DNA of 64,000 nt from an uncultured Planctomycetales bacterium. GTDB lineage: Bacteria > Omnitrophota > Gorgyraeia > Zapsychrales > JAHFFX01. Numbering within the stretch: the first letter of the stretch is position 1; every line of letters begins with the position of its first letter. Positions 191 through 32,034 of the stretch are shown here, piece by piece. The DNA lies in contig CAZTCI010000002.1 in NCBI GenBank assembly GCA_964612665.1, forward strand, positions 432,334-496,333. The letters run 5' to 3'. The notes beneath the pieces were generated by a model. The model was given only the letters and a program-made list of their open reading frames with translations. It was not told where the DNA came from and made no database searches. Position numbers and translations under genes: made by a program.

Positions 191-1264
191 TCAAGCGTTT
201 GTTTCCTGAATTTGATGCTGGCTATAAATATTTTTAATTTCCGGAAGGATTTTGACAAATGTTTCAACCAAATACGGTTCAAAATGTTTTCCTGATTGAC
301 TTTTAACTTCCTCCACCGCTTTTTGAAACGGCCATGGCTGTTTATAAGGTCGTTGAGAAGTCAGCGCATCAAAGACATCACAAATTCCACAAATCCGGCC
401 CACCATCGGAATTTGGTTTTCCTTGATATGGTTTGGATATCCCGACCCGTCCCACTTTTCATGATGAGTCAACGCGATTGTTTCGGCCATTTTCATAAAT
501 GCGGAACGGCTGCCGCCTAATAATTTGGCGCCGATCGTGGTGTGGGTTTTCATAATTTCGAATTCTTCGGTAGTTAATTTTCCTGGCTTAAGCAAAATAC
601 TGTCAGGAATTCCTAGTTTCCCAATGTCATGTAAAGGGCTTGTTGTTAACAGTAAATCGACTTGACCATTGTTCATTCCCGTGGCGCGGCCCAGGCATGT
701 CGCATACTGACTCATTCGGACAATATGCTCACCGGTTTCTTGATCGCGGAATTCGGCAGCTCTGGCTAAACGGTGAATAACATCTAATCTCGTATCGTGT
801 AATTCTAGTGTGCGTTCGTTTACTTTTTCTTCCAATATTCTGTTTTGATCCCATAATGCCTTGTCCAGCATTCGAACTTCCAGCAAATTCCGAATACGCA
901 GCAAAACTTCAAAACGATCATACGGTTTGTGAATGAAATCTCGCGCACCGGCTTCGAGAGACCGAAGTTTGACCTGCGCATTTTCCTCCTCTGTAACAAT
1001 TAAAATTGGAAGATAACTACTTGGTTTCAATTTTTTTAATTCATCAATAACTTGGAAGCCGTTTAAAAACGGCATATTGATATCGAGAAGAATTAAATCG
1101 GGTTTAAATTTTTGGTAGGCTTGACAGGCATCCCTTGGATCCATAAGACTGCGATAATTAAGGTATCCTGCTTTTTTAAGCATGTCCTCAAGCATCCGGA
1201 CACTGATAATGTCGTCGTCAATGATTAGGATTGGGGCATTTAAAATTTGATTTTCTAAAATCAT
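191..1264 (-). CDS. Response regulator with CheY-like receiver and HD-GYP c-di-GMP phosphodiesterase domain (RpfG-like)
   Basis: N-terminal receiver (IIDDD...LLDINMP), C-terminal HD domain with HDIGK and HHEKWDGSGYP signature. Confidence 0.85.
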   Translation of the reverse strand: MILENQILNAPILIIDDDIISVRMLEDMLKKAGYLNYRSLMDPRDACQAYQKFKPDLILLDINMPFLNGFQVIDELKKLKPSSYLPILIVTEEENAQVKLRSLEAGARDFIHKPYDRFEVLLRIRNLLEVRMLDKALWDQNRILEEKVNERTLELHDTRLDVIHRLARAAEFRDQETGEHIVRMSQYATCLGRATGMNNGQVDLLLTTSPLHDIGKLGIPDSILLKPGKLTTEEFEIMKTHTTIGAKLLGGSRSAFMKMAETIALTHHEKWDGSGYPNHIKENQIPMVGRICGICDVFDALTSQRPYKQPWPFQKAVEEVKSQSGKHFEPYLVETFVKILPEIKNIYSQHQIQETNA

Positions 1265-25314: not shown

Positions 25315-25387
25315 AGCACCCTCCTTTTCATGTCAAAATCAAAATTCGGTTCATTGTAGCAAAAGCACTTATTTGTGCAATGCCTTT

Positions 25388-25417
25388 TTGGCAGCGCAAA
25401 ATTACATATGTTATACT
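25388..25417 (+). promoter_or_regulatory. Sigma70-like promoter (TTGGCA, 18 nt, TATACT) driving the long structured leader
   Basis: -35 TTGGCA at 25388-25393 and -10 TATACT at 25412-25417. Confidence 0.4.
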
Positions 25418-25423
25418 TTAACC

Positions 25424-25733
25424 GGTAGTTAAGAAATTGTAGTCGTTCGTTCTTTAACTTTTAAAAAGGTAAACTACTTCGAAAGAGTAGGACCCCTGAA
25501 CCACGTTCGGTTTCAGGGCTTTGAACTTTTCTAGTTCAAAGCCCGTGAATAATTCGTGGGACAGGGCCCTAAACCCAACGTAGTTTAGGGACAAAGCCGT
25601 GAGCCTAATTTTCTTTTATAGAAATATGGTTGTCTGGCTGCCGTTGTCGATAACGTGATATCGATTGTTTTGGTAAGCACGGGTTCTTGGTCCCTTCTTT
25701 CGAAGTTCAATACCTTAAAAGGGGATTAAGAAA
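25424..25733 (+). promoter_or_regulatory. Highly structured 5' leader, candidate riboswitch with c-di-GMP-I (GEMM)-like P1 (GNRA) and P2 (tetraloop-receptor) pieces split by about 95 nt of extra hairpins
   Basis: At least 6 consecutive hairpins; G-U wobble pairs form only on the plus strand. 25467-25493 resembles the GEMM 5' half (GGUAAACUACUUCGAAAGAGUAGGAC); 25588-25629 resembles GGGAC-AAAGCC...CCUAA...UAUGG. Confidence 0.35.
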
Positions 25734-25985
25734 ATGCGAAAAATTATTAGCATGACCTGTGCTGTTTTTCTTTTAAGCAGTCTAAATTTGAATGCCGCTG
25801 TAACACGAGATGTCGCTTACCATGTTGCGGTCATTATTCCCCCGCACGTTGATACAGCTGTTCTTAATTATTTTCAACCTGAAAAAAACGATGCCAAAGC
25901 GGCCGACGACGATTTTGTCATCACAACTGAAAAGGTCATCCGGAATAAAAAACCGGTTATCATACAGACAATAACTACGAAATGA
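25734..25985 (+). CDS. Small secreted protein (83 aa) of unknown function
   Basis: GGGGA RBS about 9 nt upstream of the ATG, signal peptide MRKIISMTCAVFLLSSLNLNA. Confidence 0.55.
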   Translation: MRKIISMTCAVFLLSSLNLNAAVTRDVAYHVAVIIPPHVDTAVLNYFQPEKNDAKAADDDFVITTEKVIRNKKPVIIQTITTK

Positions 25986-26044
25986 GGGCTCACCGTTAAT
26001 CGGCGAAGTCCTCAGCCCTTCTGGGATCCGCAGGAGGGCAATCT

Positions 26045-26106
26045 CTTTTAAAACAAAAGCGGGCCAGCCCTCGTCGCTGCGTAAATCAAGGGCTGGCCCG
26101 CTTCTT
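26045..26106 (-). terminator. Rho-independent terminator (15-bp GC stem) after the 978-aa gene; partly bidirectional
   Basis: AAGCGGGCCAGCCCT / AGGGCTGGCCCGCTT inverted repeat followed on the minus strand by TTTTGTTTTAAAAG. Confidence 0.7.
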
Positions 26107-26123: not shown

Positions 26124-29060
26124 TTATCGCCGCCTTACCGGAAAATTCAAAATAGAAGTGGCCCCTTCCTTCAAATCAACCGTATTTTTTATTTTAGTTA
26201 CGGGAAGATACTGTAACGGCAAAGAGTTAATATCTAAGGTAATCGTATGTTTCCCCGGCGGAATGTCGGTGAAGAAATAACTGCCCTGATAATCGGTCGT
26301 CATGGTTTCGTTGCGATCCAGCGTAACTTTTACGCGCGGGATCAAGATTTCACCGGGATCGACTTTATTGTTTCCGTTAGTATCTTCAAAAACAGCGCCA
26401 TAAATTCCTGAATGGGTGGCGACCGCAAAGTTAAATGTTTTTACCTTGTCCTGTTCAATGATTACGTCTTCATATAAAGGCGTATTGACCACATACCCGG
26501 CGGGAATATTTTCAGGATTGATGGCAATTGAAATTTTTTTGGCGCGGATCGTGGTTTGATAAAAACCAAGATGATTCGTCATAACTTCTCGTTCACCCAC
26601 CTTGACTTTAATTCCTTCCAGGCCTGGTTCGTCCGTATCCTTTTTATTATTGCCGTTTAAATCCTTAAAGACCGTCCCCTGAATGATGCCAAGCGGACTA
26701 TAACTAAATGGCAAATCCCAGGCCGAACGGATGCCCCAACGCAGATCACCTTCAGCGTAGGGATGGTTCTCCCGATTTTCCGCCCAAACATTACGTATTT
26801 CGCCGTCGACAAATAATTCAAAATCTTGTTTAGGCCGGTAAGATAATCCCAGCGTTCCCGAAATACTGTCTTCGCCTGCGAGAAAACTGTGCAAGCTTTC
26901 GCTTTGTTCTTCATTACGATAATAAAAGCCAATTGTGCCGGACAAGCGTTGGTTTAGCTGTTTATTATAATTAATACCCGTTGTATAAACCTGCGGGTTC
27001 GAACGTTCTTTTGAGGAAGTTTCCGTCAGCCATGAATATTCATAATTAAAGAAATAATAAAGCCCTTGTAAAATCCCAATGCGAAAGCCTGTGGTCAACC
27101 CATAACGGTCGAACTCCGAGATCGGCGACAAGGGAAAACGGCTGCGTTGATACACATTACCTACAAACGCCGAAAAAAGCTGCCCGCCTGAAAGTTGAAA
27201 GCTTTTCGAATATGTATCTGAGATTCGCGCGTCACGTCGGGGTGAAATCGTCCCGGGCGTATCAACATAAAAAAGATTAGTACTTAAGCCTGAAGTATCA
27301 TCCAACGGCACTTCAAATGAACTGCTTAAATCATAATTAATTTTATCCGGATGATTCGGGTTCGGAAAAGCCCGGTCTTTATAAATATCGAAATTAGAAT
27401 AAGCGCCCCACTTATCATGCCGATAATTCCAAGTTGCAATACCGCCCAGTTCTCCGCGGTCCGATGGAAAACTACTGACCGTTGTAAAATCTTTATCGAT
27501 GTTACGAAAATTCAACTGTAGATTATTATCCCGACCTCCGAACTGCGTGTTGACCAAGCTTGCAAACCGTTCCTCGTCGTGCGCCACTTCCGCATCAAGG
27601 TACATCTGTTTAAATTTATGACTAGTCTCAACCGAATAGGCCCTCTTTTTAAGGAAGTTCGGGCGGGCCGTTCCATAACCTTGGGCGTAATTCAAGGAAA
27701 CGGAATGATCTTCATGAGGAAACAATGTCGTGCGCAGACCTTCTATATAAGAATCCGTTCTCTTAGTAAGTCCTGGGACCAGATATCCAAATGTCGACTG
27801 GTCCAGCCCCCACAAGGCTGAATAACCTAACTTATTATGAAAGGCTTCGGCATTCAGCAACACACCGCGAAAATATTTTCCAGGAAGCGTGAGCGGTGTA
27901 AAATGCTGGGCCGCGTCGAAACCGCGGATATTGAAATCTTTAAAGTTACCTATCTTTCCATTGGTTAGTCCAACAGTGTAGCCCGTTGCTTTGGTCGTAT
28001 CTTCGAATTTATTAAAAATGGCAGAGGTGTCAAATTCACCATAAGGCGTGGCGCCATAGATTCCGGTATACTGAAGATAATTTAAACTCTGTCTTTTTTG
28101 GCTTCGAACACTATGACCAGTGTAATAAGAACTCCAATCAGACGAATAGGTAAATCTAAAAGGTTTTTCTTTTTCTTCCACTGTCTTTTTAGTTTCCGAC
28201 TGAGCAGTGATAGCCAAAGGATAAATGACCTTCACATTAAATGTCCAGCGTCCGTGCTGTTCCCAAATATGCAGTAGCGTTTCTCCTCGAGCAACCGCTG
28301 TTAATGCTAAGTGGTCATTGTCTAACCGTTTTATCTCAATAAAACCTGGTGTAATAATCAAGTAGCGTTCAATATTTCGGCCGGAAAGAGTGACCGTGGA
28401 ATTTAATTCTACATTTAATTCACTGCGCGGTTGCTGGGCCCATAATCGGTCATCGAGATATATCGTTTGCAGTTCCTGTCCACCTGCTTTTTGGATATGT
28501 GTTAGGCTGGGTTGCGCTTGATGAGGTTCTGATTTTGTGATCGGAAGCGTTGACTTTTTAGAAATTTTGGCCGGTTGAGATACAACAACGGGTGTAGTTG
28601 TGACTAATTCAACCCGCTGGTGGGCTTCGATCGGTTCTAATTGTTGTACAGATTGAGTCTGAACCGTTTGTTTTTGTTGAGATGGCCGTGCTAAGGAAGT
28701 CTTTTGGGAAGTCGCCGGGATAGAAGCGCGTTTGATTTCTTTGACGGAGAGTTTTCCAACAACGACTTGTTGTTTTACCGACGGTGGAAAGGTTTTGACT
28801 GGCGGAAGCTCCTCAATCTTCCCTTCTTTAAAAAGTTCAATTTGATGAAGATAATTCTTGGGTTCTTGAGCTTTCGGGTCAGACAGAGACGCTAAATTAA
28901 AATATAAAATGGCCTTATCGTAATTACCCTGATCAATTGCAGTCTTGCCTAAGTGAATGAGCTCTTGATAAGAAAGGACTTCATCACTTTGAGCGGGGAC
29001 GGGCCAAAACAATAAATAAACAACCACGACCATTCGAAGAAGAAAAGGAAGTTTGCGCAT
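26124..29060 (-). CDS. Large outer-membrane assembly-platform-like protein: signal peptide, TPR, secretin-N/CpaC_N-like domain, beta-barrel, two C-terminal Cna-B/SdrD-B-like beta-sandwich domains
   Basis: TVTLSGRNIERYLIITPGFIEIKRLDNDHLALTAVARGETLLHIWEQHG matches the pilus-secretin N-domain pattern; Y/G/N-rich barrel region; GTVFKDLNGNNKKD and GAVFEDTNGNNKVD repeats. Confidence 0.5.
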   Translation of the reverse strand: MRKLPFLLRMVVVVYLLFWPVPAQSDEVLSYQELIHLGKTAIDQGNYDKAILYFNLASLSDPKAQEPKNYLHQIELFKEGKIEELPPVKTFPPSVKQQVVVGKLSVKEIKRASIPATSQKTSLARPSQQKQTVQTQSVQQLEPIEAHQRVELVTTTPVVVSQPAKISKKSTLPITKSEPHQAQPSLTHIQKAGGQELQTIYLDDRLWAQQPRSELNVELNSTVTLSGRNIERYLIITPGFIEIKRLDNDHLALTAVARGETLLHIWEQHGRWTFNVKVIYPLAITAQSETKKTVEEKEKPFRFTYSSDWSSYYTGHSVRSQKRQSLNYLQYTGIYGATPYGEFDTSAIFNKFEDTTKATGYTVGLTNGKIGNFKDFNIRGFDAAQHFTPLTLPGKYFRGVLLNAEAFHNKLGYSALWGLDQSTFGYLVPGLTKRTDSYIEGLRTTLFPHEDHSVSLNYAQGYGTARPNFLKKRAYSVETSHKFKQMYLDAEVAHDEERFASLVNTQFGGRDNNLQLNFRNIDKDFTTVSSFPSDRGELGGIATWNYRHDKWGAYSNFDIYKDRAFPNPNHPDKINYDLSSSFEVPLDDTSGLSTNLFYVDTPGTISPRRDARISDTYSKSFQLSGGQLFSAFVGNVYQRSRFPLSPISEFDRYGLTTGFRIGILQGLYYFFNYEYSWLTETSSKERSNPQVYTTGINYNKQLNQRLSGTIGFYYRNEEQSESLHSFLAGEDSISGTLGLSYRPKQDFELFVDGEIRNVWAENRENHPYAEGDLRWGIRSAWDLPFSYSPLGIIQGTVFKDLNGNNKKDTDEPGLEGIKVKVGEREVMTNHLGFYQTTIRAKKISIAINPENIPAGYVVNTPLYEDVIIEQDKVKTFNFAVATHSGIYGAVFEDTNGNNKVDPGEILIPRVKVTLDRNETMTTDYQGSYFFTDIPPGKHTITLDINSLPLQYLPVTKIKNTVDLKEGATSILNFPVRRR

Positions 29061-29084
29061 AGTTGATTTTCATTTGAGGCCGTA

Positions 29085-29897
29085 TCAATCTCTTTCCTCA
29101 CGAATAACAAAATGACCGGAATCATCTTTCGTAAAATCGATCTCTTTCACTAAGCTATCGTCTTGCCCCAAATCAAAAGTAAGAACGATCGTATAAGCCC
29201 CAGCTCGAAGATTAGGTGAAATTTTTATTTTAAAAGGTGTCTTTTTGCCTGGCGGTAAATAAAATGGCTGAGTTTTCCCACGGTCAACAATCAGACTATT
29301 TTTATCCATAATGTAATAAGTACAGGATGGGATAAGAATGATGTTCCCGATATTGAGAAAATCACCGCTAACGGCATTATCCTTAAGGGCTGCGTTTTGA
29401 ACTTTCCCTGCCTTATTACGGTTCGAAGGTTCGACAAAAAACAGACTTCCCACTCGAGTGATAATACTTAAACCTGTTTGACTGCGCATAGCTTTGCTGA
29501 CGGATTTTTCAAAAAATAAAACACCATAATGACCGCCTTGAATATTATCTGGAACTTTGATTGAATAGCGGACTTTCTGTTGTCCATAAGAAGGCAAGTT
29601 AAATTCTTGAGGAGAAAATTGAACCCATTGATACATTGTGTAAGGAGTTGATCCGGCCGGTAAAAAATCTTTCTTACCACCATATGGAGGGATATACGTA
29701 AAATCTTCCCAATAAGCTCTAACAATTTGAGCTTCTGGAGAAGTATTGTGTACAGTAATCGTGCCACTAAGAGATTGCCCCGGCGTCACCTGAAGATTGA
29801 TTTTGCCTTCTTCAATCAACAGTTGAGCCGAGGCAGTCTTATGGCCGGTTAAAATCAATAGCGTCGAAAGAATAACGCTGATCAATATACGTTTCAT
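29085..29897 (-). CDS. Periplasmic PapD/FimC-like pilus chaperone candidate
   Basis: Signal peptide; LQVTPGQSLSGTITVHNTSPEAQIVRAYWED and HYGVLFFE match the chaperone N-domain pattern (R.I..........V.N.s..P.L.Q.W.D and ESLFYLN); ATG at 29897 (GTG at 29924 possible). Confidence 0.5.
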   Translation of the reverse strand: MKRILISVILSTLLILTGHKTASAQLLIEEGKINLQVTPGQSLSGTITVHNTSPEAQIVRAYWEDFTYIPPYGGKKDFLPAGSTPYTMYQWVQFSPQEFNLPSYGQQKVRYSIKVPDNIQGGHYGVLFFEKSVSKAMRSQTGLSIITRVGSLFFVEPSNRNKAGKVQNAALKDNAVSGDFLNIGNIILIPSCTYYIMDKNSLIVDRGKTQPFYLPPGKKTPFKIKISPNLRAGAYTIVLTFDLGQDDSLVKEIDFTKDDSGHFVIREERD

Positions 29898-29927
29898 ATT
29901 GCAGTGGCCATTTTTCTTTGTCACTTA

Positions 29928-30563
29928 TTATGTTGCCGTCGCTGAGATTAACAAGGTTCCGTCATAGCTTCCGGCCTTATCGGCATTAGAGAAAACTTCA
30001 CCAGCTGTCGGATCAGGAATTGGAGCTGTGGCATCTTTCGTCACAATTCCTAAATAAACTCTTAACCATCCTCCAGCCGTCTCGGTTGATGCAATTGTTT
30101 CACCATGAACATCCTTTAAGAGTTTTTTAGGCCCATGCGCACTTATAGGACTTTCAGTGGTATCCGTCGGATTGGGGCCAACAAAAACAACCTTCATAAA
30201 CGTGGCGGTTGATTTCCAACCTAGACCGTGGGCAGGATTATTTGGGTTAGCGCCTTCCGTATAAGTGACAACCGCGCTTGGACTGCCCGCTCCTCCGGAA
30301 CTTACCACATCAATGGCAAAAAAATGATCCGGAAGATAAATACCAATTGCGGGATTAAGTGTCATTGGCGAAAAGTTTAAAGTTGTTCCTGTGACAGCCG
30401 TAAAAACCGGCGGCGTTCCTTTAACCGAAAAAGCGTTAATACCAACACTCGTCGCGGCCGGAACTGTTGCAGAAATAACGAATGTCTTATCAAGGGCAAA
30501 ACTTTTGGCAGAAGCAAAAACTGCGACACAAAAAACAAGTAAACCTAGTAATATCTTTTTCAT
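29928..30563 (-). CDS. Pilin-like secreted subunit candidate (about 211 aa)
   Basis: AGGAGG RBS before the ATG at 30563; signal peptide; T/S/A/G/V-rich beta protein ending AGSYDGTLLISATAT, like the C-terminal G.Y..T.T..V.Y strand of chaperone-usher pilins. Confidence 0.45.
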   Translation of the reverse strand: MKKILLGLLVFCVAVFASAKSFALDKTFVISATVPAATSVGINAFSVKGTPPVFTAVTGTTLNFSPMTLNPAIGIYLPDHFFAIDVVSSGGAGSPSAVVTYTEGANPNNPAHGLGWKSTATFMKVVFVGPNPTDTTESPISAHGPKKLLKDVHGETIASTETAGGWLRVYLGIVTKDATAPIPDPTAGEVFSNADKAGSYDGTLLISATAT

Positions 30564-30648
30564 GATGTTTTCCTCCTTTTGAGTATGAGTTACATGTTGA
30601 ATGTCAGCTTTCAAAAACACCGACCTGCAGTTCATTATCATAATACAA

Positions 30649-32034
30649 CTACATTTCGCTTAGCGAGTACATTACAGCGAGATTGTAGTCTCCAGGTTGC
30701 ATTTCGGGATAAGGGCTTAATTGATAAAGTACCCGAAACGTTGTCAAAGTACCTTGAATATCAGAGAACAAAATTGGTACAGTCCCGGATGGTACAGCAC
30801 TAAAGTCATTAAATTCGGTCTTTCCCGTTTGACCTTCTAATACTTCAATCTTCATGCGAAAAGCGTCTGATGGAATTTTTTCTCCTTTTTCGCTGGTTAA
30901 TGATGAATTAATGTTTTGAGTTACCATAAACGGTTTGCCTAAATTAGTGTTAACCACAACTTTAATTTCTTTGATCTGACTTGGCGTTCCAGGCAATAAT
31001 TTTGAGAAACGCAATCCATCCGATGGATATTGTACATCGAGATTAAAGATCGGAGTCACTTCAATATTGAGATCAAAATCCACGGTTTCCGGGCGATCAC
31101 CTTTTTCAATCGTGTAACGGATTTTACCCCGGTAATATCCAGCTTTTTGATTGGTTAACGTTTTATCATCCAGCGCAAAGTCAACAATAAAGGAACCACT
31201 GTTTTCTGAAGCGCTGTAAAGTAGTTGATGCTTTCGTTCGAGGGAAACAGGATTCAAATAAGAAAGCTGTCCTTGATCTCCGGCCAGCTCGTGGGTCGAA
31301 AACACTAAACTTCCCGGAAGTAAATCTTCATCCAATTCATTGTGCGGAAATTCTAACACATCTTGATAAATGCGGAGATCGCCTGGATTCCCCTCGTACC
31401 CTATTTTGACATAACCTGTTTGGTCTTTTCCGTTATGTGTACTCAACTTGACTGATTGTTTTCCTGATGAACCTTCTATGGTGAATTTATTTTCCTTCGA
31501 CACTTCAAACGACATATTCAAAACAGCATCTTCAACGCTACCAGCGCCGATAGGACGCAATACATATTGTAATTTGCCAAGGTAATCACCTGACTGTTCA
31601 ATTTTGTTTTTATCGATATTATAAACGACTTGGAAGGAATCACTATCGCCGTTCGGATTTGAAGTATAAAGCAGTTGATCTGAATAACCGAAAGATGTCG
31701 GTTCTTGAACGTACAAGGTTCCGGCAGAATTTGAAGCATTGAGCGTATAAGTTGTTATTCCAGAGGGATTCATGGAGTAACCTCTTTCATTCACTAAGGG
31801 TTCCAGAATTCTTTGAAAGATCTGATACTGTTTACCGTCGTTTGAAATGATGCGTATGCGGGCTTCTTTATTGGCCACGGACTGGTTATCCACCCGTCCA
31901 AAACGAAGACTATTCCCACCTTCGACCGGATTTACGGACAGATTGGTTACAGCATATGTGGATACGGGCGCAAGACCAAAAAAGATCAAAAATAAAAGAT
32001 AGGGTAACCGTTGATTGAACATAAGAAGCCTCAC
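30649..32034 (-). CDS. Secreted protein with three tandem pilin-like domains
   Basis: Signal peptide; three roughly 140-aa repeats each ending with a G-[DY]-Y-x-G-x-[LI]-x-Y-x-[LI] strand (SGDYLGKLQYVL, AGYYRGKIRYTI, PGDYNLAVMYSL). Confidence 0.45.
   Translation of the reverse strand: MRLLMFNQRLPYLLFLIFFGLAPVSTYAVTNLSVNPVEGGNSLRFGRVDNQSVANKEARIRIISNDGKQYQIFQRILEPLVNERGYSMNPSGITTYTLNASNSAGTLYVQEPTSFGYSDQLLYTSNPNGDSDSFQVVYNIDKNKIEQSGDYLGKLQYVLRPIGAGSVEDAVLNMSFEVSKENKFTIEGSSGKQSVKLSTHNGKDQTGYVKIGYEGNPGDLRIYQDVLEFPHNELDEDLLPGSLVFSTHELAGDQGQLSYLNPVSLERKHQLLYSASENSGSFIVDFALDDKTLTNQKAGYYRGKIRYTIEKGDRPETVDFDLNIEVTPIFNLDVQYPSDGLRFSKLLPGTPSQIKEIKVVVNTNLGKPFMVTQNINSSLTSEKGEKIPSDAFRMKIEVLEGQTGKTEFNDFSAVPSGTVPILFSDIQGTLTTFRVLYQLSPYPEMQPGDYNLAVMYSLSEM

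Follow-up and report, generated by a model that had tools for sequence, protein, structure and literature searches.

We describe a candidate riboswitch in a 64-kb stretch of a Candidatus Omnitrophota contig (the window below, meaning all of the DNA analyzed, which was scanned in full with Rfam 15). The RNA lies at positions 25462-25644 of the plus strand and is very probably a GEMM-I riboswitch, the class that binds cyclic di-GMP (c-di-GMP-I), in which the 3' strand of the first hairpin, P2, is split by a two-hairpin domain and which controls the gene of a secreted protein of 83 amino acids (aa). A split GEMM-I aptamer had been proposed from inspection of the letters alone (the sequence-only reading). 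The proposal is supported by orthologues that have no insert, by a covariance model from which the window was left out, by a basal helix that covaries across the insert, and by a GAAA tetraloop partner that occurs only upstream of it.

Parts and conservation of the aptamer

The core is divided into a 5' segment (25462-25493), with the equivalent of G20 of the Vc2 aptamer, the 5' strand of a basal helix, an AAA strand, P2 and G-A-C, and a 3' segment (25591-25644), with the 3' strand of the basal helix, the equivalent of A47, the second hairpin P3 and the equivalents of G83 and C92. Between them lie 97 nucleotides (nt) at 25494-25590. The P2-like hairpin GGUAAACUACUUCGAAAGAGUAGGAC (25468-25493) is capped by a GAAA loop. 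In a sensitive scan of 25380-25760 it drew a sub-threshold match to RF01051 (25458-25505, 18.1 bits) that covers only the 5' half, AAAAAGGUAAACUACuUCGAAAGAGUAGGACCC. It had been recognized before as a GEMM 5' half, with a start at 25467; that position is the preceding A, and the hairpin begins one nucleotide later. The P2 stem-loop itself (25474-25490) has a stem of 6 base pairs (bp) with one bulged U and the GAAA tetraloop at 25481-25484, and an internal-loop strand AAA (25471-25473) faces G-A-C (25491-25493). The 2-bp basal helix, made of G25469-C25592 and U25470-A25591, spans the insert. On the far side, ACAAAGCC (25591-25598) holds the AAA linker between the hairpins, and the junction GGGACAAAGCC is followed by the 11-nt receptor of P3 (25595-25639), CCUAA (25604-25608) and UAUGG (25625-25629). 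This half had also been picked out from the letters alone, and it is the well-aligned part of the only Rfam match in the window.

We take G25468 to be G20 of Vc2, A25593 to be A47 and C25641 to be C92. The basal pairs presumably correspond to G21-C46 (G25469-C25592) and C22-G45 (U25470-A25591), positions 25491-25493 to G42-A43-C44 (C25493 being C44) and G25632 to G83, which places the insert between C44 and G45. In the structures of Vc2, G20, A47 and C92 are nucleotides of the pocket. The numbering is a count along the Vc2 sequence, in which G20, G32-A35, C44 and A47 fall as published, and it is consistent with the residues named in PMC11705072. Among the 12 cores compared, G20, C44, the GCC bearing C92 and the CAAAGC of the linker region are identical throughout, and at least 11 have a G at the G83 position. 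With its pocket nucleotides conserved, the aptamer is predicted to bind c-di-GMP.

GEMM-I is among the most thoroughly studied riboswitch folds. In Vc2, the C44-G83 pair and the stack of tetraloop on receptor are the two long-range contacts between P2 and P3, the mutation G83C abolishes ligand binding, and exchanging the two bases (C44G/G83C) failed to bring it back (PMC11705072). Stems of 2 and 6 bp flank a 3-nt internal loop in the first hairpin of GEMM RNAs as originally described, where the AAA linker hardly varies and no insertion is mentioned (PMC1950547). The window has the GU/AC basal pairs, the AAA and GAC loops, the 6-bp stem and the GAAA loop of this description. What it does not have is a continuous 3' strand, 97 nt separating C25493 from A25591, and because the strand is broken in this way we count the element as a variant. 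The GAAA-capped P2 is matched by CCUAA/UAUGG in a P3 whose pairs covary, and the only GAAA partner found for this receptor is that of the upstream hairpin.

A single-sequence search with the 83-aa open reading frame (ORF) found only that ORF, and the other contigs carrying it show 100% identity in the leader and give no comparative signal. Relatives were reached through the synteny of a 978-aa neighbor (26124-29060, minus strand, convergent to the small ORF), whose homologues, at 31-49% identity, come from metagenome-assembled genomes of Candidatus Omnitrophota and from metagenomes. Every locus fetched has a four-gene cluster that ends in a gene of 9xx aa, followed by a convergent small ORF (77-115 aa) behind a leader of 320-550 nt. 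P2 is near-identical across these leaders (GGUAAACUACUUCGAAAGAGUAGGRC), and 3' of it they share ACAAAGCC...CCUAA...UAUGG...GGCUGCC. In L006 the two halves are joined directly, GGUAAACUACUUCGAAAGAGUAGGGC running straight into ACAAAGCC, and the same is true of L012, L013, L018, L020 and L021. The insert is present in 6 of the 12 orthologues compared, with lengths of 97 (window), 83 (L017), 82 (L008), 65 (L011), 56 (L004) and 41 nt (L010), and has a length of 0 nt in eight orthologous loci if two near-duplicates are counted. When the sequences are parsed, the break always falls at the same phosphodiester bond, between GGRC and ACAAAGC. The comparison of homologous leaders that the sequence-only reading had called for thus gave a covarying core and canonical scores for insert-free orthologues (63-67 bits): L006 and L012 match RF01051 contiguously at 66.7 and 63.0 bits, and L013 matches RF03167 (the GGC variant) contiguously at 67.4 bits. 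Among the interrupted ones, L011 reaches 30.4 bits with RF01051, with 84 nt in place of P2, L008 reaches 29 bits with a false P2 like that of the window, and L004 and L010 have no Rfam match.

A covariance model (R1) was trained on 10 orthologues, with neither the window nor L004 among them. R1 aligned to the window at full length over 25462-25644 at 73.0 bits (E ~1e-12), accommodating the 97 nt as an insertion that follows model position 31 and precedes position 32; elsewhere in the 64 kb its best score was 15.7 bits, and on L004 it reached 51.3 bits. Counted on the 12-sequence model alignment, 92.3% of the cells of the core pairs are standard pairs and 16 of the 22 pairs show compensatory changes, a result that none of 500 shuffles equaled, while slid controls gave 32-52%. 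The basal helix is paired across the insert in all 12 sequences, G-C in every case for the first pair and U-A (nine), C-G (two) or U-G (one) for the second; covariation is seen in one of these two pairs and in five of the six pairs of the upper stem of P2. An alignment fitted to a model somewhat favors the structure being counted, but the slid controls and a MAFFT alignment show the same pattern. The MAFFT alignment of the spliced cores placed L017 and L018 off by one base in P3, and the model-based alignment (A7) was therefore used for the counts.

The two-hairpin domain and competing explanations

The insert is strongly structured: 25494-25590 folds alone at -51.2 kcal/mol in RNAfold (z = -7.95 against dinucleotide shuffles). 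The first hairpin, HpA (25494-25566, plus strand, 73 nt), rises from a CCCUG/CAGGG base through two internal loops to the apical stem GGGCUUUGAACU/AGUUCAAAGCCC; the second, HpB (25567-25590, plus strand), pairs CCCUAAAC with GUUUAGGG under an 8-nt loop and abuts both HpA and the basal helix with no linker. Four inserted hairpins had been drawn here before. The strong structure of the segment is confirmed, but it consists of two hairpins, as in all the insert-bearing relatives, since HpA as one long hairpin has -41.1 kcal/mol and the division of 25494-25566 into three small ones, at -25.9 kcal/mol, is 15 kcal/mol worse and was ruled out. Folded alone, each of the six orthologous inserts gives exactly two hairpins, which abut and between them take up its full length (z from -3.7 to -8.0). 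In the modeled structure, the internal loop of P2 becomes a four-way junction through the insert. We also observed that UAAACUAC in the 5' strand of P2 (25470-25477) is perfectly complementary to GUAGUUUA on the 3' side of HpB (25580-25587), so HpB could compete with P2.

The same arrangement recurs outside the orthologous loci. A metagenome scan with a pattern of P2 followed by CCC returned 19 loci, of which 17 have the same architecture; they represent 15 distinct aptamers with inserts of 36-83 nt folded into two abutting hairpins. In total, at least 20 aptamers besides that of the window carry an insert at this site, with lengths of 36-97 nt overall. R1 scores all the metagenomic aptamers of this type at 38-74 bits, and the genes downstream of them include members of the 83-aa protein's family, type IV pilin-like genes and others. 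The insert-specific pattern had no matches in viral contigs. The gathering score of Rfam catches only 3 of 18 metagenomic aptamers with an insert, through a local end that drops P2. The Rfam model has no place for the insert, and either drops P2 in this manner or takes an insert hairpin for P2.

Some of the aptamers are expanded or multiplied in other ways. L038 (2165-2788, minus strand) has three GEMM-I aptamers in tandem, the first without an insert and the next two with two-hairpin inserts of 49 and 54 nt (R1 scores of 37.7, 52.7 and 53.1 bits, respectively). A long distal extension of P3 beyond the receptor was seen in L004 (8285-8515, minus strand), where the P3 segment measures 127 nt, and in L026, L027/L031, L037 and L038 (82-105 nt). 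P3-extended aptamers that also have the P2 insert are thus expanded at two sites, and L004 is missed entirely by Rfam.

Nine inserts can be aligned to one another (alignment A8: L008, L043, L036, L026, L034, L017, L041, L035 and L025) and, being alignable, share an origin. Their HpA follows the pattern CCCNGC-UUC-stem-UAC-GCNGGG with a UUNCU loop, and their HpB the pattern CCNGGC-GAA-stem-GAA-GCCNGG, often with a GAAA cap. Across the nine, 87% of the cells are paired and 17 of 26 pairs show compensatory changes, against 27-49% in slid controls. The pairs were counted on a structure supplied by hand, as RNAalifold set the register of HpA off by one (at a GGGCCC palindrome) and missed HpB because of gaps. 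The internal loops UUC/UAC in HpA and GAA/GAA in HpB both lie about 6 bp from the junction, UUC is complementary to GAA, and L026 changes both (GCC with GGA); judging from the sequences, a loop-loop tertiary contact between UUC and GAA may exist.

Leaders with and without the insert are intermixed on a neighbor-joining (NJ) tree of the neighboring protein, which implies that the domain, as a whole, was precisely lost or gained more than once. L017 and L018 group together on this tree and have identical P2 sequences, the former with an insert of 83 nt and the latter with none. Since alignable inserts (L008 and L017) occur in both main clades, an old insertion followed by several precise losses appears to be the history of the domain, repeated gains being the alternative. 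As to its role, we propose, with low confidence, that the insert is a peripheral domain beside the C44-G83 pair that would serve structure or folding kinetics.

The explanation that fares best among the alternatives, though we still consider it improbable, is that HpA and HpB are a functional module that binds a protein or a second ligand, or else serves as a tertiary clamp and so resets affinity or kinetics, which would make the RNA a composite, two-input or re-tuned riboswitch. The conservation of unpaired nucleotides in the nine alignable inserts (UUC/UAC, GAA/GAA, the frequent GAAA cap and UUNCU) would fit such a module, as would the complementarity of UUC and GAA and the position of the site beside the essential C44-G83 pair. 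Close relatives lack the domain altogether, L018 against L017 being the clearest case in the interleaved tree, so it is dispensable for regulating the same gene. The window's insert, moreover, has none of the conserved internal loops, and no Rfam family matches it. If the module existed, the insert-bearing aptamers would be a distinct riboswitch subclass, with a different input-output relation and systematically missed by databases.

The Rfam alignment itself suggests another register. RF01051 is the only Rfam family found in the window, at 25555-25645 of the plus strand, with 35.7 bits against a gathering score of 35 (E = 0.0026), and it reaches that score only there; c-di-GMP-II (RF01786) had no match at the gathering score in the window and none at E <= 10 in 25380-25760. 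The Rfam check that had been suggested thus returned the expected family on the unexcised sequence, with P2 wrongly assigned. If this register were right, the aptamer would be 25555-25645 with 25567-25590 as its P2, and the upstream GAAA hairpin would be a decoy, a competitor or the decayed remnant of a tandem; a GGGC precedes the hairpin, as in Vc2, and the complementarity of UAAACUAC and GUAGUUUA means that the two hairpins could compete. We think it very unlikely. Only 25593-25645 fits the family well, and the hairpin taken for P2 has an 8-nt loop and no GNRA tetraloop, even though P3 has a GAAA receptor; in this half, 8 positions are flagged as being in non-standard pairs and the 3' strand of the basal helix is deleted. 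With the upstream hairpin hidden, R1 gives the contiguous register only 43.9 bits, compared with 73.0 for the split one. Insert-free orthologues join a P2 of the upstream type straight to P3, and the second hairpin of the insert differs in sequence from one orthologue to another.

On another view, the 97 nt stem from a local duplication or from a mobile or repetitive sequence of the MITE or REP type and have inactivated the aptamer, leaving a pseudo-riboswitch. This view draws on the palindromic nature of the insert, its GGAC...GGGAC bracket and a 71% resemblance between 25558-25578 and 25588-25608, but can hardly be right, given that in 20 other aptamers this very site is taken by inserts of unrelated sequence that fold into two hairpins in the same way, that a subset of the inserts covaries, that core nucleotides, promoter, expression platform and ORF are all intact, that four contigs from three sequencing runs show 100% identity throughout the leader, and that blastn-short found no second copy in the 64-kb window, which is what was covered of the source genome, or in 352 kb of related loci. 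The sequence-only reading was accordingly right about a real insert that splits the aptamer, and its suggestion of a one-off inserted element gives way to a recurrent domain at a fixed site, always with two hairpins; the GGAC/GGGAC bracket it noted is present but is not a target-site duplication, as it follows from HpB ending in GGG and being followed by AC.

Leader, expression platform and regulated gene

The promoter proposed earlier was found as described. It is of the sigma-70 type (25388-25417, plus strand), with TTGGCA at 25388-25393, an 18-nt spacer and TATACT, agrees with the consensus at 10 of 12 positions and has a TG ahead of the -10 box; transcription would start near 25424. The extended -10 sequence TGTTATACT (25409-25417) has an exact match in 10 of the 12 distinct leaders from orthologous loci, where 18-133 nt separate it from the aptamer downstream. 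Such letter-for-letter conservation, while the neighboring protein is only 31-49% identical, is unusually strong for a promoter.

The leader (about 310 nt) folds at -113.7 kcal/mol (z = -6.3 against shuffled controls), which bears out the earlier description of it as heavily hairpinned. The minus strand folds nearly as well, so fold energy cannot settle the strand, and we assign the element to the plus strand because of the covariance-model matches, the conserved promoter and the downstream ORF. The position is that of a 5' regulatory element on the coding strand, as in GEMM-I, with the promoter upstream and the ORF 89 nt downstream of the aptamer. Between the transcription start and the aptamer there is a 5' box, GUUCUUUAAC (25449-25458, plus strand), present in most orthologous leaders as GUUCUUU(AA). 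It is complementary to the P2 loop and 3' strand (GAAAGAG) and also to the nucleotides that separate the Shine-Dalgarno sequence from the AUG; its pairing with 25728-25732 appears in the unconstrained minimum free energy (MFE) fold. The box has the same sense as the anti-Shine-Dalgarno strand or the 5' arm of the terminator. Directly 3' of the aptamer is a hairpin, GUCGAUA/UAUCGAU (25646-25665, plus strand). All orthologues have one here, beginning 0-3 nt after the GCC of the aptamer and often followed by (C)GUUAA, and it may replace a conventional P1 or stack in its place.

The putative switch would operate through a segment at 25684-25717 (plus strand), of which 25684-25694 can pair with the Shine-Dalgarno region and 25689-25717 with the P2 region. 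The Shine-Dalgarno sequence AAGGGGA lies at 25719-25725 and the AUG at 25734-25736. When the aptamer fold is enforced, 25684-25694 pairs with 25722-25732 and the probability that the GGGG is unpaired drops from 0.31 to 0.01. Alternatively, 25689-25717 can pair with 25466-25494 in a duplex of -27.3 kcal/mol, and in the unconstrained MFE 25466-25494 is paired with 25689-25716. Each of the 12 leaders has a hairpin further downstream whose 5' arm can pair with the P2 region, in duplexes of -17 to -31 kcal/mol. This hairpin is an intrinsic terminator in L006, L012, L013, L017, L018, L020 and L021, and a Shine-Dalgarno-sequestering helix in the window, L004, L008 and L011; in L006, L012, L017 and L018 the terminator forms only with the aptamer enforced. 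According to these folds, bound c-di-GMP would lock P2 against P3 and leave 25684-25694 to pair with the Shine-Dalgarno region and block translation, while in the ligand-free state the P2 region would take up 25689-25717 and partly free the Shine-Dalgarno sequence. Several relatives would use the same logic through an intrinsic terminator. From this modeling we lean slightly towards an OFF switch, in which c-di-GMP would repress the small secreted protein.

Several observations weigh against this interpretation of the leader. R1 was trained on relatives, so its scores test the architecture within the lineage and not membership in the wider family. A consistent P1 helix could not be defined, the candidates being, in the window, UAAC (25455-25458) with GUUG (25643-25646) and, in some relatives, UUUAA/UUAAA downstream of the 3' hairpin. 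No sequence similarity is detectable between the window's insert and the conserved HpA/HpB domain, which have only the position, the CCC...GGG ends and the two-hairpin form in common, and the homology of this insert is therefore argued from position and architecture. The insert starts directly after C44, 2 nt from the pocket, and could alter affinity or specificity. With regard to switching, L013, L020 and L021 form the terminator in both states. The aptamer-enforced fold of the window is 18.5 kcal/mol less stable than the unconstrained MFE, in which part of the Shine-Dalgarno sequence remains paired to the 5' box. All of these are equilibrium folds, and in view of that, of the energy difference and of the possible pairing of the box with the Shine-Dalgarno region, it is uncertain in which direction the switch works.

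The regulated gene is the 83-aa ORF at 25734-25985 (plus strand), followed by a terminator-like hairpin with a run of U (26015-26049, plus strand). The signal-peptide protein assigned to it before is real and belongs to a small conserved family: the N-terminus is signal-peptide-like, and a profile search found 23 members, all of them hypothetical and with no Pfam match, that share a ...SVTIP... strand and a C-terminal R.NQ.V.L.T.V.K motif. An AlphaFold2 model of the small protein, made with the 23 family sequences, was too poor for a fold search (pLDDT 63.7, pTM 0.26). The four-gene cluster next to it (26124-32034, minus strand), with proteins of about 460, 210-240, 250-280 and 930-1050 aa, is kept in all orthologous loci. 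Within it only the largest protein, the 978-aa neighbor in the window, has Pfam matches, and these are weak (SdrD_B and the pilus N-terminal domain T2SS-T3SS_pil_N); the cluster may be an uncharacterized surface or secretion apparatus. Because the small gene is always found beside this cluster with its pilus N-terminal domain, a surface or secretion role of its product is plausible from the genomic context. In L010 (5180-5870), an RHH-PIN toxin-antitoxin pair lies between the 1032-aa gene and the small ORF. Elsewhere in the window, the protein encoded at 191-1264 (minus strand) matches Response_reg and HD_5/HD, consistent with the HD-GYP protein that had been read there.

Comparison with known c-di-GMP riboswitches

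We found no description in the literature of a domain insertion into GEMM-I at this site, although supplementary alignments and subscription journals could hold a mention, nor any description of c-di-GMP riboswitches in Omnitrophota. The c-di-GMP regulons of Omnitrophota and related uncultured bacteria are probably under-annotated, given that the gathering threshold caught 3 of 18 aptamers and that the window passed it only through a mis-assigned P2. The finding would also tie c-di-GMP, the predicted ligand, to an uncharacterized but conserved small secreted protein, and matched loci that differ in having the insert or not, as L017 and L018 do, offer a natural experiment on ligand affinity, folding kinetics and switching.

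The window's aptamer shares with Vc2 and RF01051 the G20, the 2-bp basal helix, the AAA/GAC loop, the 6-bp P2 with its GAAA loop, the AAA linker, the P3 with its 11-nt receptor, C44 and G83, and the GCC that bears C92. As in other GEMM-I RNAs, it lies in the 5' untranslated region of a gene for a secreted or surface protein, with an expression platform that competes with strands of the aptamer (PMC1950547, PMC11705072). In many GEMM terminators the switching strand pairs with the 3' part of P3 (PMC1950547), whereas here it pairs with P2. The triple-tandem Bc3-5 of Bacillus thuringiensis (PMC4759541) also has multiple GEMM-like hairpins and resembles the three tandem aptamers of L038; the window, in contrast, has one aptamer, and its upstream GAAA hairpin and downstream P3 belong together.

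The variants grouped in RF03167 and the cGAMP-sensing GEMM-Ib have the same scaffold, and one orthologue (L013/L016) matches RF03167 with 67.4 bits. GEMM-Ib is recognized by an A at position 20. While these variants differ by point changes in the pocket, the window keeps a G at G20 and a standard junction, and its difference is architectural: the 3' strand of P2, unlike that of Vc2, is broken between C44 and G45 by a two-hairpin domain, of 36-97 nt across the aptamers found, that would open a four-way junction. Optional helices are known from other riboswitches, since TPP and cobalamin aptamers carry variable peripheral extensions and their core tolerates lineage-specific helices. Those extensions differ from the present ones, in which the helices leave beside a tertiary pair, 2 nt from the intercalating adenine, and not at a distal loop. 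The split aptamer is therefore a structural variant of a known riboswitch class and not a separate class, and what is unusual is the location of its insert beside an essential tertiary pair and the pocket. Docking of P2 on P3 is considered essential, and since natural aptamers nevertheless accept a domain of 36-97 nt right after C44, the GEMM-I scaffold is more tolerant than its consensus implies.

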